DNA of 64,000 nucleotides from Eledone cirrhosa (lineage: Eukaryota): the NCBI GenBank assembly GCA_964016885.1, contig OZ024741.1:4030001-4094000 (forward strand), given 5' to 3'. Position numbers and translations under genes: made by a program. Positions 7,642-59,783 of the stretch are shown piece after piece. The first letter of the stretch is position 1. Each line of letters starts with the position of its first letter. The notes below the pieces were generated by a model that searched no databases, had not been told where the DNA came from, and was given only the letters and a program-made list of their open reading frames with translations.

Positions 7642-7686
7642 AGTCACTGAAGAGGTCACAGAGTGTGTGACGAAAGAACTATGACT
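7642..7686 (+). ncRNA. Minimal type-I hammerhead ribozyme in the PLE-1 pLTR
   Basis: AGTCA-CTGAAGA-G-GTCACA(GAGTG)TGTGAC-GAAA-GAAC-TA^TGACT; stem I AGTCA/TGACT, CUA triplet, vestigial stem III. Confidence 0.8.
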
Positions 7687-8075
7687 ATATATATATAAAC
7701 AACTATCTGGTTGTGGAACCAACCAACCAACCAGAAATTTATAAATTTGTAAATTTATAAATATATATTAAATTAAATTGAAGTGAAAGCAACTGGTGCG
7801 TGTGTTTCTTATTGGCAACATGACCCTCCCAAAGTATAACAATATCGGTTTCAACACACGATTTCAGATAAAGAATCTTGCTAAACAAATTCAGAAACGA
7901 AATATATATATATACATATATATATATATATATACATATATATATATATATATATACATATATATATATATGTATATATATATTTATATATATATATACA
8001 TATATATATTTATATATATATATACATATATATATATATATATATATATATACATATATATACGTATATATATAT

Positions 8076-11000
8076 ATCATCATCATCATCATCATCACCG
8101 TTTTACGTCCGTTCTTCCACGCTAGCATGGGTTAGACGGGTTGTCCTGTTGTGGGCAGTGTCTGGTCGGCTGACCATGCCTTGCTCATACAGGAACTGAT
8201 CTGGCTTGATTTCTACAGCTGGATGCCCTTCCTAACACCAACCTCATTTACAGTGAGTGCTGGGTGCTTTTTCGTGGCGCCTACACGTCCACTTTACAGT
8301 GTGGGCTGGGTGCTTTTTTGCCGTGGCACCTCCACGACCACCTTGCGGTGGGGGGGGGGGGGGGCATATTGTTTATATGCTTCAGCATGTACCCATGGGA
8401 GGTCGGGTACCCTGTATTACTGCGTGACGCCAGAAGTCACGGTCGTGTGTCATTGACTTTGAGAGGTGTAGTTGGGTAAGGTCGGCTTTTATCACCTCAT
8501 CCCAAGTCATCTTGGGTCTCCCCACTCCGCGGTTTCCATCAACTTCTAGTGCTCTGCACCTTTTTATGCAGCTGTCATCCTTCATACGCATCACATGTCC
8601 ATACCAGCGTAACCGCCTCTCCTGCACGCAGCATTTGATTCCTCTTATGCTCAGTCTCTCTCTCAATTCATTTATGCTTTGTCGTTCACGTATATTACTG
8701 TTACACATCCATCGGAGCATGCAGGCTTCGTTTCTCTCTAATCTACGTAAGTCTTCCACCTTCAGCGCCCAGGTCTCACTACCATGCAACATCGCTGTTC
8801 AGATACACGCATCATACAGTCTGCCTTTCATTCTGAGGGAGAAGCCTTTTGCAGCTAGCAGTGGTAGTAGTTCCCTAAACTTCTTCCATCCCGTTCTTAC
8901 CCTAGTTATTGTACTTTCTGAGCACCCACCTCCGTTGCTAATTCGGTCACCTAGGTAGCAGAAGCTGTCTACTGTTTCTACAGGGCCCTCCCAGAGATTG
9001 GTGGTACTTGTTTCCTGTGGCTGTTTGCTTGCTGTTTCAGCACAGCTGCTGCATGTGAATCCTACATTCTTAATTAAGCTTCCTGAGATCCCGCTACATC
9101 TCTTGTGTACCCATTGTTTGCATTTTGGGCAGAGAATGGCGTTCCTACCTACACCTTTCCTACATACTGAGCAAGGCCATTTCCCTGAGGGGATCTGGGT
9201 TCTGTTTTCTCGTCTACTTATAAGGACCTTAGTCTTTGTCATGTTGACTTTGAGGCCCTTTCTCTCTAGTCCCTGCTTCCAGGTTTGGGATTTATTCTCT
9301 AGTTCTACCATAGATTCAGCTATGAGTGCGAGGTCATCAGCATACAGGAGTTCCCATGGGCATCCGGTCTTAAACTCCTCCGTTATTGCCTGCAGGACTA
9401 TGATGAACAGGAGAGGGCTAAGAACAGAGCCCTGGTGGACCCCAACCTGTACGCTAAATTCCTCGCTATACTCATTGCCAATCCTAACTTTGCTGACTGC
9501 TCCCCTATACATGGCTTGTACCGCTTTCACAAGCCATTCATCTACTCCTAGTTTTCTAAGAGCCCACCAGATTACTGCACGTGGAACTCTGTCAAAGGCT
9601 TTCTCAAGGTCGACAAATACCAAGTAGAGTGGCTTACTTTTAGCTAGGTACTTTTCCTGTAATTGCCTCACAAGGAAGAGGGCATCAGTGGTGCCTTTCC
9701 CTGGTACAAACCCAAATTGCATCTCGTCTATATTCACCCGGTCCCTAATCAGCTGTGCTATAACTCTTTCTGTTACTTTCATGACCTGGTCCATCAACTT
9801 TATACCTCTATAGTTTCCTCTATCTAGTGCATCGCCTTTACCTTTGTAGCAGTTGACAATGATGCTACTGCACCAATCTTTTGGTATGGCCCCCTCTAGT
9901 ATTACCTGGTTAACGATACGTGTGGTTATAGTGTGACCTACAGACCCAGATGCCTTCAGCATCTCGGCAGCTATACCCGATGGACCGGTTGCCTTCCCTA
10001 TCTTCATATCTCTGATTGCCTTACTTACTACGCTGCCGCTGACTTGTACTGCTGGTCCCTCTATAGGGTCTACGTGGGGTATGGTCTCTTCTTCCCATGC
10101 ATTCTCCTCATTTAGTAATCTATCATAATGACTCTTCCATGCATCTTTCTTCTCAGCACTTGTGAGGGCAAGCTCACCTTTATCATTCCGGATACACTTC
10201 TCTCCAATGACATCACAACTATCTCTGACACACTGCCTCGCAATCTTGAATACCTCCTGTTTCTGGTCCTCACGTTGTAAAACATGCTTGAATTTTCTAT
10301 CCTCTGCTTCCCTCCTAGCTAAGTATACTTGTCGCCTAGCTTCCCTCTTGGTCTCTATGTAATGTACCCTGCTCCCCCCGTTCTTCCATTCTTTCCATGC
10401 CTGTCTCTTGGCCTTGACTGCTTCATCTACCTTATTGTTCCACCACCAAGTCACTCTCCTCCTGCTTGAGGTCTTACTCCAGCCACAAACCTCATCCGTC
10501 GCCTCTAGTAAGTTATTTTTTAGAACTCCCAGTTCTCTTCTACGTTAAATGTCTCTATCTGTTCTTCTTTACTGTCGTAGGCGTTGAGTAAAATATCTTT
10601 AAATCTGTTACTGGTTGAGGGGACTTTCAGCTTCCAGATCTTTCTTCTCCAGGTTGGCCTCTGTTTCAGGGCTCGTCTAGTTCTGACCGTGAGGTCGCTG
10701 ACAACTAAGCTATGTTGGGATGTACATTCCTCACTAGGGAAGGCTTTTGTGTTTACGACCGTCCATCTGTCACGTCCTCTGATGAGGATAAAATCTAACT
10801 GACTAGAGTGCTCCCCTGATCTATAGGTGATCAGGTGGTTGTCGGGTTTTTTAAAGTTTGTGTTACATATCGAGATGTCAATGGCGTCGCAGAATTCTAG
10901 AAGTCTGAATTCTTCCTCATTCCTTGTGCCAACTCCATGGCCTCCATGTACTCTATTGAAGCCGTCGCAGTGTTTACCTACGTGTCCGTTAAAATCTCCT

Positions 11001-11150
11001 GCAATGGTTAGGAAGTCCTTGTCGTCTGTTAGAGCAGTAGTGTGTATTAGGGACTCGTAAAACCTATCCTTAAGTTCGTCTGGCAGCCCCGATTGGGGTG
11101 CGTAAGCTGATATTATTGTGGTAATTGTCTTATTCAGGACTAGTCTGAGT
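8076..11150 (-). mobile_element. RTE-clade LINE, subfamily A, 5'-truncated within the APE domain; (GAT)n tail
   Basis: APE motifs [21 protein letters not shown] (10520-11150); RT motifs [24 protein letters not shown] (8799-10454); RRLRWYGHV end (8382-8792); one frameshift near 10520 and a CGA>TGA at 8799. Confidence 0.95.
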
Positions 11151-58602: not shown

Positions 58603-58812
58603 ATATATATAGAGATATATATATATAGAGATATATATATATATAGATATATATATATATATAGAGATATATATATATAGAGATATATATATATAGAGAT
58701 ATATATATATATATATAGAGATATATATATATATAGAGATATATATATATATATAGAGATATATATATATAGAGATATATATATATAGATATATAGATAT
58801 AGATATATATAG

Positions 58813-59162
58813 ATCATCATCATCATTTCATCATTTCATTTTACGTCCGCTTTTTCCCTGCTTGCAAGGGTGGGACGGGAACTGATTCTGGCTTGATTTC
58901 TACAGCTGGATGCCCTTCCTAACACCAACCTCATTTACAGTGAGTGCTGGGTGCATTTTTGCCGTGGCACCTCCACGACCACTTTGCAGTGGTATGATAT
59001 GGATCCCAGTCCCTATCACCTCATTTCTACAGCTGAGTAAACTGGAGCAATGTGAAATAAAGTGTCTTGCTCAAGGAAACAACACATCACCCAGTCTGAG
59101 AATTGAACTCACAACCTTTCGATTGCAAGGCCAATGCTCTAACCACTAAGCCATGTGCCTCC
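58813..59162 (-). mobile_element. tRNA-derived SINE
   Basis: Same family as 25344-25678. Confidence 0.92.
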
Positions 59163-59728
59163 ATATATAGATATATATATATATATATATATATAGATAT
59201 ATATATATATATAGAGATATATATATATATATATATATATATATAGATATATATATATATATAGAGATATATATATATATATATATATATATATATATAT
59301 ATATATATATATATATATATATATATATATATATATAGAGAGAGAGAGAGAGAGAGAGAGAGAGAGAGAGAGAGAGATATATATATATATAGAGAGAGAG
59401 AGAGATATATATATATATATATATATATATATATATATATATATAGAGAGAGAGAGAGAGAGAGAGAGAGAGATATATATATATATATATAGATATATAT
59501 ATATATATATAGATATATATATATATATATATAGATATATATATATATATATATATATATATATATATAGATATATATATATTTTTGAGTTTATGTTGGT
59601 TGTATACCAACACCTCAGTATGCAGGCTGGAGCACTCGACGAAGTGCGCAGGTTGGCTTGGTTACTCCGGAGTAGTGTAAAATAAAGTTAAATAAAAGTC
59701 AAATGATTAAAATTTAGCTTCGTTTATT

Positions 59729-59783
59729 ACTGCCATATATATTTCAGTGACAGCCATCTTTGGCTGTGACCTCTTCAGGCAGT
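59729..59783 (-). ncRNA. Hammerhead-like motif in the PLE-2 3' region; G at the cleavage position, possibly inactive
   Basis: Minus strand: ACTGC-CTGAAGA-GGTCACAGCCA(AAGA)TGGCTGTCACT-GAAA-TATATA-TG-GCAGT. Confidence 0.65.

Follow-up and report, generated by a model that had tools for sequence, protein, structure and literature searches.

Much of what is needed to read the locus described here is already in print: hammerhead ribozymes in the pseudo-long terminal repeats (pseudo-LTRs) of Penelope-like elements (PLEs), the small retrotransposons with ribozymes known as retrozymes, their proposed PLE origin and the targeting of (TA)n repeats. PLE hammerheads have a type-I fold placed in the terminal repeat, a U3–A8 core variant, an extra nucleotide before stem II and a palindromic stem III – for which a dimer arrangement has been described – and occur mostly in solitary, truncated copies (PMC4209133). 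Hydra clade PLEs combine hammerheads with (TA)n targets (PMC8557442). Metazoan non-LTR retrozymes are tandem units of low GC content that lack an open reading frame (ORF), carry one type-I hammerhead each and are found beside PLEs; their mobilisation by PLEs has been proposed from this co-occurrence and from similarity to pseudo-LTRs (PMC7229834; 10.64898/2026.07.22.740005). The identity of the enzyme that moves animal retrozymes is treated as an open question in the first of these sources and argued from similarity in the second. A biochemical point of reference comes from the anole, whose purified PLE protein cuts and extends both DNA strands, the genomic tail being defined by the start of reverse transcription at two internal RNA sites (PMC11167929).

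Here we analyse a stretch of 64,000 nucleotides (nt) from the cephalopod Eledone cirrhosa (contig OZ024741.1, positions 4,030,001 to 4,094,000; hereafter the window), which is a nest of elements spaced by (TA)n and harbours eight predicted hammerheads. With a probability that we put at about 0.8, it brings together four protein-coding PLE families (families 1, 2, 6 and 7) and three families of ORF-less retrozymes (families 3, 4 and 5), all with a predicted hammerhead upstream of two fixed ends, the retrozymes having likely been copied by PLE enzymes. The hammerheads share with those of PLE pseudo-LTRs all the features listed above, and families 3–5 share those listed for metazoan retrozymes. 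All seven families are multicopy and young, with best genome matches of 84–100%; genome comparisons drew on the best 30 loci per family and on 36 longer stretches.

The evidence that carries this reading is the way in which insertions end. In every family there are two preferred 3′ ends downstream of the predicted ribozyme cut, mostly lying against (TA)n. Counted in nt downstream of that cut, distinct ends cluster at +163–164 (28 of 48) and +222–225 (19) in family 1, whose reference stopped at 225; at +72–73 (14 of 48) and +206–211 (31) in family 2; at +76–80 (17 of 31) and +238–247 (14) in family 3; at +242–257 (16 of 36) and +304–316 (10) in family 4; at +92 (10 of 19) and +195 (8) in family 5; at +79 (22 of 57) and +143–147 (30) in family 6; and at +56–58 (13 of 50) and +149–159 (32) in family 7. 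(TA)n follows in 43/48, 45/48, 31/31, 28/36, 19/19, 54/57 and 43/50 of these ends, respectively. The two sites are sharp in family 3 (31/31) and family 5 (18/19) and looser in family 4 (26/36), whose unit holds an internal TA tract. Where two arms stand head to head, they end at opposite sites in all 39 PLE insertions and all 16 retrozyme insertions, or 55/55 together, in a scoring restricted to arms that end at one or the other of these sites.

Because this two-site, opposite-arm footprint matches the PLE tail signature, the retrozyme insertions carry a PLE mark, and their mobilisation by PLEs is well supported at the level of sequence. As with the PAc protein of the anole element Poseidon, the tail is set by two internal start or end sites that lie past the hammerhead, here deduced from insertion sequences; PAc starts without target homology (PMC11167929), whereas the ends seen here overlap (TA)n by a few TA-like bases. 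Inverted 5′-truncated arms and tails are as in the PLEs of PMC8557442, except that tails measure about 60–165 nt compared with the 30–40 given there. The departure from the retrozymes described in PMC7229834 and 10.64898/2026.07.22.740005 is that the link to PLEs takes the form of a footprint, in retrozymes devoid of similarity to the four PLEs examined; in the literature, supplements aside, we found no report of a two-site footprint on retrozyme insertions.

A plausible sequence of events would begin with the GIY-YIG nuclease of a PLE cutting both strands within (TA)n. At each of the resulting DNA ends, its reverse transcriptase (RT) would prime on one of two internal sites, 56–316 nt past the ribozyme cut, copy a variable distance and stop, leaving 5′-truncated single or two-armed copies. 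Retrozymes would offer the identical two-site signal without an ORF. Hammerheads paired as dimers through the palindromic stem III would cut the tandem retrozyme transcripts, and the cut units may be ligated into circles, round which the RT could run several times to yield arrays of fractional unit number.

Two junctions join different families. In the window, at 57911–58601, ends of families 6 and 1 meet across some 20 nt, part of which is a small inverted piece of family 1; elsewhere, at L314:1628-2655, a two-armed family 7 piece is joined, 6 nt past its predicted cut and with no (TA)n, to 1.2 units of retrozyme family 5. The latter could be either a template switch or a clipped end. As pointers to a partner PLE the two junctions were set aside, their outer ends lying at sites of the same rank, against the 55/55 rule; for both, a pair of independent events and a clipped end would be an equally likely account.

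The eight type-I folds named by the initial annotation are borne out, one of them (given as 41905) starting two bases on, at 41907. Each has stem I, stem II, GAAA and a core of the form CUGANGA (six) or UUGANAA (two), and seven have an NUH triplet, the exception being AUG at 59729. That they make up seven families is also correct, those at 7642 and 58397 belonging to one (95.8% identity over 259 nt), although 'unrelated' was too strong a word for families such as those at 14181 and 59729, which have PLE clade motifs in common. A strict hammerhead descriptor recovers six of the eight folds, compared with 0.025 on average and never more than 2 in 200 block-wise shuffles of the window that keep dinucleotides in 500-nt blocks – a control that is slightly favourable, as the descriptor was relaxed with the eight folds known, its first version having found four. 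The two folds that escape the strict descriptor, 27030 (bulged stem II) and 59729 (G17), are recovered by a relaxed scan of the window that finds no ninth hammerhead. Of the Rfam hammerhead models, none reaches its gathering score in the window, the sole weak match being HH9 on 31302 (E 0.048; 18.5 of 52 bits), and 57986 and 58397 give not even that. In an Rfam E-value scan of the whole window, the matches listed were dominated by microRNA models on TA hairpins. PLE hammerhead variants were themselves originally described by descriptors rather than by these models (PMC4209133).

In six of the seven families, stem III reads as a perfect palindrome that cannot form a hairpin and has self-duplex energies of −5.0 to −16.4 kcal/mol, and the G10.1–C11.1 pair at the base of stem II is present in families 1, 3, 5 and 6. 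Unlike the hammerheads described in PMC4209133, some have stem II regions of up to 116 nt and mismatches at 10.1–11.1; the U–U at this position in family 4 is that of axolotl HHR_Amex2 (10.64898/2026.07.22.740005). In family 7, 41 of 47 matches are one sequence with AUA and three show the AUG form of the window; given this majority, AUG at 59729 is a copy-level change, and the window copy is probably inactive as a ribozyme. We also observed that Hydra-type hammerheads (14181–14335, 59729–59783, L125 and L250:5212) have at position four of stem II a C–C mismatch that persists where the pairs on either side vary, which makes it a candidate tertiary contact.

The initial annotation had confined five families to ORF-less islands. 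Inside the window this holds; in the genome, the families at 14181 and 57986 continue into PLE reading frames, and the first of these islands, placed among those of 0.4–1.3 kb, measures 2.6 kb (13983–16557). Judged by these continuations, the two islands are 5′-truncated ends of protein-coding PLEs, so that four of the seven families count as PLEs and, of the five non-autonomous families claimed, three (27030, 31302 and 41905) stand. Family 1 has an open frame of 1177 amino acids with YVDD in a full-length copy (L313), and family 2 one of 785 elsewhere in the genome. Of 14 family 2 copies read to 9.9 kb, ten show PLE frames of at least 200 amino acids that end about 3.4 kb before the 3′ end, giving a 3′ untranslated region (UTR) of a length to be compared with Hydra elements that are generally under 3 kb in all (PMC8557442). 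PLE frames were found in 6/6 longer copies of family 6, whose protein matches RVT_1 (E 8.5e-7) and GIY-YIG (E 1.7e-6) in Pfam; the family 7 protein gives a weak GIY-YIG match (E 0.007). The four families have in common a partial tandem structure, inverted 5′-truncated arms and an optional tail.

With respect to clades, families 2 and 7 carry, by their motifs, the marks of the Hydra clade as described in PMC8557442: DKT, a CxCx5C linker, hammerheads and (TA)n targets, with RWK in family 7 (family 2 has RWR in L046). A first guess that family 7 might be a Naiad element was dropped, its C-terminal nuclease and its motifs fitting Hydra. The Cx4CxxC linker of Neptune and Nematis elements (PMC8557442) occurs in both family 1 and family 6, which are candidates for one or the other of these clades; GxKF and DKG occur in family 6 only, family 1 having DKS and no GxKF. 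Two local details deserve mention. At 14976–15331 the family 2 UTR contains a perfect palindrome of about 250 bp that is absent from the other copies examined and may be a tiny two-armed insertion. Just ahead of the first family 1 hammerhead, at 7540–7600, the pseudo-LTR has motifs that we take to resemble ETS, NRF1 and YY1 sites, and this block is a possible RNA polymerase II promoter.

Families 3, 4 and 5 occur as dispersed arrays whose tandem units measure 593, 472 and 485 nt, respectively, have GC contents of 43%, 36% and 36% and contain a single hammerhead each. The longest ATG frames in the tandem units span 48, 114 (low complexity) and 34 amino acids, and none is a real ORF. On present evidence, these families agree with the sequence definition of non-LTR retrozymes. 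Their arrays comprise fractional numbers of units, from fewer than one to more than seven, and cross the cut site repeatedly, which is compatible with either a circle or an uncut multimer as template. An overall excess of A>G changes was not found when set against T>C (5 vs 7 in family 3, 1 vs 5 in family 5, 18 vs 8 in family 4), while five of eight array-wide variants in family 4 are A>G. A search of the family 5 unit against sequencing runs gave no RNA run among the matches listed. Further tandem retrozymes, with units of 310, 311, 467 and 556 nt (L236, L297, L266 and L268), turned up in the genome samples, and at L066:1297-2886 a stretch common to family 4 and its relative r266 marks the junction of a recombinant between the two.

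In its hammerhead density the window is ordinary for its genome. Across 80 evenly spaced 10-kb stretches from 18 contigs (799.6 kb, or 0.03% of the 3.0-Gb assembly), the strict descriptor finds 69 matches, compared with 0–3 in ten shuffles. They fall in 23 of the 80 stretches, amount to about 39 insertions of about 23 families at 80% identity and correspond to 86 per Mb (bootstrap 95% interval 49–130); on resampling these stretches, the probability of at least six in 64 kb is 0.39. Extrapolation, with a variance inflated by tandem arrays, gives a genome total of about 250,000 hammerheads (150,000–390,000). First-look candidate counts per family, which ran from 44 to 1,962, should not be taken for copy numbers; they clash with the sample, where family 1 has eight matches in 0.8 Mb and family 5 none. 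Schistosoma mansoni is reportedly home to tens of thousands of hammerheads. The highest total in the literature consulted is that of axolotl, 126,247 (10.64898/2026.07.22.740005), and the motif numbers of 2,000–9,000 quoted in PMC4209133 are far below our estimate. A giant squid paper gives 235 Rfam hammerheads; in the octopus and cephalopod literature on hammerheads we found no description of families such as these, and one octopus repeat annotation does not mention ribozymes.

Family 4 and a relative have in common, upstream of the hammerhead, a promoter-like block made up of an octamer-containing 12-nt element and a TATA box. The identical 12-nt element precedes the host U6 and MRP genes at about −77, with TATA at −30, and was not found upstream of U2 in this genome. 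In the 0.8-Mb sample the 12-mer occurs 17 times, each time upstream of an intact or damaged hammerhead; a more permissive pattern, applied to a wider set of loci, gives 18 clusters, five of which are not so placed. Family 4 may be self-transcribing, with a U6/MRP-like element inside its unit as promoter; as regards read-through by RNA polymerase III, runs of T reach T4 in family 4 and T5 in its relative r266. A comparable arrangement is newt satellite 2, a hammerhead repeat with a promoter of the small nuclear RNA type inside its unit, which is cited as an RNA polymerase II promoter (as cited in PMC2220036), whereas the family 4 element is of the U6/MRP type rather than U2, has a shorter spacing to TATA and is predicted only. 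At L236:8834 and L270:7310, a second upstream block with a TATA-like word is common to two different hammerhead families and is possibly a second type of promoter. In the U6 array itself (L333, L334 and L336–L339), some units have the gene and its upstream element set apart by a roughly 190-nt insertion at the TATA box.

How else might these observations be explained? That the motifs are chance folds in AT-rich sequence could be argued from the silence of Rfam at gathering scores and from the unremarkable energies of several short folds (z −0.65 to −1.6), but the excess over shuffled sequence in the window and in the genome samples, together with a hammerhead position relative to the element end that is alike in all seven families and with covariation, has already refuted this idea, which retains next to no probability. 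Covariation was scored for the family 4 type, other families being too uniform or uncounted: among 14 hammerheads aligned without gaps, 9 of 12 pairs change on both sides and 90.5% of cells pair, a level reached in 0/500 shuffles and above all slid controls, although seven of the 14 rows were gathered by the structure descriptor and are thus biased towards pairing. The core is also kept in rows gathered by the upstream octamer alone, and a fixed core with covarying stems across related families implies selection on the fold. The same argument bears on a more serious rival, which departs from our reading in the template step only: PLE enzymes might copy uncut linear multimer transcripts, with the hammerheads as mere passengers. 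This we consider unlikely but well worth keeping in mind, as anole PLE hammerhead mutants insert normally in vitro (PMC11167929), the base of stem II departs from the canonical form in several folds and variants are little shared within arrays – those private to an insertion are confined to one unit in 55/61, 99/125 and 14/15 cases in families 3, 4 and 5. Besides the selection just mentioned, it has to contend with the circles documented for coral, mussel and axolotl retrozymes.

Two further proposals concern the route by which families 3–5 spread. They could be detached pseudo-LTRs, inserted once with a PLE and then grown by local tandem duplication – a satellite route of array growth discussed by Li et al. 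(10.64898/2026.07.22.740005) – and arrays of at least seven units do occur, as do 18 family 4 variants common to some but not all units of an array. As the main route, however, this is improbable and already contradicted by the sequences: arrays of families 3 and 5 are dispersed over many contigs at 97–100% identity with no common unique sequence upstream of their arms, and every array shows a 5′ break of its own together with fixed 3′ ends and, in many cases, an inverted arm ending at the other site (16/16). Alternatively, retrozymes could be moved by the RTE-type long interspersed nuclear elements (LINEs) that dominate the window, are young and also sit in (TA)n, much as appears to be the case for a short interspersed nuclear element (SINE) that has a stretch in common with the RTE 3′ end (see below). 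We regard this as very improbable, since the three units match neither the SINE nor four LINE 3′ ends, lack an (ATC)n tail and show a two-site, opposite-arm footprint that is the one of PLEs.

Mobilisation by PLE enzymes thus remains our preferred reading, and several observations weigh against it or against its finer points. One two-armed family 5 insertion (L097) has an arm ending at +43, at neither site. The retrozyme units show only short or low-complexity matches to the four PLEs, so that a partner PLE is not named; a sample of best loci tilts towards young copies and could have missed a protein-coding parent of families 3–5. Pfam searches of the family 1 and family 2 proteins gave zero matches, leaving their RT and GIY-YIG assignments to motifs. 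As regards the ribozyme, the base of stem II is C–A, U–U and G–U in families 2, 4 and 7 in place of G10.1–C11.1, the descriptor-gathered rows favour pairing, frog retrozyme dimers were cleaved in only one of nine cases (10.64898/2026.07.22.740005) and the hammerhead of the anole PLE is dispensable for insertion in vitro (PMC11167929). Few private variants lie on both arms of an insertion (3/30, 5/38 and 0/2 in families 3, 4 and 5), which lends little support to one circular template. Finally, the promoter-like block also folds as a hairpin (z −1.8), and its element-to-TATA spacing is 42 nt in family 4 and about 38–45 in relatives, compared with 46–47 in U6/MRP. A more far-reaching picture – an ecology of ribozyme RNAs living on PLE enzymes, with at least 23 families, about a quarter of a million motifs, circular templates, an RT dimer of PLE origin that primes both DNA ends at the two sites, and a captured U6/MRP promoter by which one retrozyme group would transcribe itself – is tentative, and we would give it somewhat less than even odds.

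Table 1. Features of the 64,000-nt window (positions within the window; cuts and element classes are predictions from sequence)
Feature	Position	Strand	Remarks
Family 1 PLE, inverted arm	5513..6276	-	99.5% to full-length L313 copy; runs into N gap 5313-5512
Family 1 PLE ORF, 3′ part, 351 aa	6290..7345	+	RT thumb, Cx4CxxC linker, GIY-YIG-like YIG motif
Hammerhead, family 1	7642..7686	+	in PLE 3′ pseudo-LTR; predicted cut after 7681; element end near 7901 (second end site)
Family 2 PLE, 5′-truncated, Hydra-type motifs	13983..16557	-	distal 2.6 kb of ~3.4-kb microsatellite-rich 3′ UTR; another insert at about 14976-15331
Hammerhead, family 2	14181..14335	-	116-nt stem II region, C-A at base, C-C mismatch; predicted cut after 14191; z -6.0
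Family 2 extreme 3′ end, three 45-nt fragments inside (TA)n	26352..26602	.	two head to head
Retrozyme family 3, 0.82 of 593-nt unit	26707..27193	+	ends 80 nt after predicted cut against (TA)n
Hammerhead, family 3	27030..27119	+	UUGAUAA core, GUC; stem III a 10-nt palindrome; predicted cut after 27114
Retrozyme family 4, about one 472-nt unit	30682..31493	-	split by tRNA-derived SINE at about 30810-31150
Hammerhead, family 4	31302..31346	-	U-U at stem II base, UAACAA loop; predicted cut after 31309
Promoter-like block, family 4	31379..31428	-	octamer-containing 12-nt element (31428-31417), TATA box 42 nt on; also folds as hairpin
Retrozyme family 5, 0.94 of 485-nt unit	41620..42073	+	ends 92 nt after predicted cut against (TA)n
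Hammerhead, family 5	41907..41985	+	stem I weak (4 bp, two of them G-U); stem III a 10-nt palindrome; predicted cut after 41981
Family 6 PLE 3′ pseudo-LTR, 5′-truncated	57911..58325	-	GxKF, DKG, Cx4CxxC; Neptune/Nematis-like
Hammerhead, family 6	57986..58023	-	UUGAAAA core; predicted cut after 57990
Family 1 pseudo-LTR, solo 3′ piece	58346..58601	+	head to head with family 6, no (TA)n between
Hammerhead, family 1, second copy	58397..58441	+	in solo 3′ pseudo-LTR piece
Family 7 PLE, 5′-truncated, Hydra-type motifs	59583..63000	-	reading frame broken in window copy; extra internal duplicate 62734-63000
Hammerhead, family 7	59729..59783	-	G at cleavage position; z -3.7
Two young APE-RT LINE families (~75% alike)	8396-11004, 21249-24112, 28487-30493, 40238-41548, 50038-51719, 54819-57783		PHD finger directly after RT; (ATC)n end inside (TA)n
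tRNA-derived SINE, six copies	24472-24581, 25346-25680, 28105-28417, 30808-31172, 42650-42984, 58816-59182		
1-kb element with 209-bp terminal inverted repeats	16558-17513, 35315-36267		two copies at 99%, neighbour sequence included

The remainder of the window belongs to other elements. Its large ORFs are those of LINEs with an apurinic/apyrimidinic endonuclease and an RT (APE-RT LINEs), not of PLEs. Five copies of the tRNA-derived SINE have 117 nt in common, at 91–93%, with the LINE 3′ end, and 64 SINE matches occur in the 0.8-Mb sample; SINE and LINE are therefore likely a pair. The 1-kb element with terminal inverted repeats has no match in that sample, and Rfam gave zero matches on 35315–39924. 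The initial annotation was right about the kind of element – PLE pseudo-LTRs and retrozymes in (TA)n – and its suggestion of PLE mobilisation gains support from the sequences, but it overreached in number and scope: the 'many' unexplained islands that it would have made ribozyme elements include SINEs and the terminal-inverted-repeat element, and the islands other than those in which the eight folds lie have no hammerhead in the relaxed scan.

Both classes of element were known; what is added is their footprint seen side by side on coding and protein-free families, together with an estimate of density. That estimate suggests one hammerhead per ~12 kb of this genome, while standard annotation with Rfam shows none in the window; the window can be taken as representative of a genome unusually rich in hammerheads. 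Coding PLEs and ORF-less retrozymes with the same footprint, and with start sites mapped to a few bases, lie within this one window, and the open frames in the same genome (1177 amino acids in family 1, 785 in family 2) turn the idea that PLE enzymes move animal retrozymes into a defined in vitro test by means of the PAc assay.

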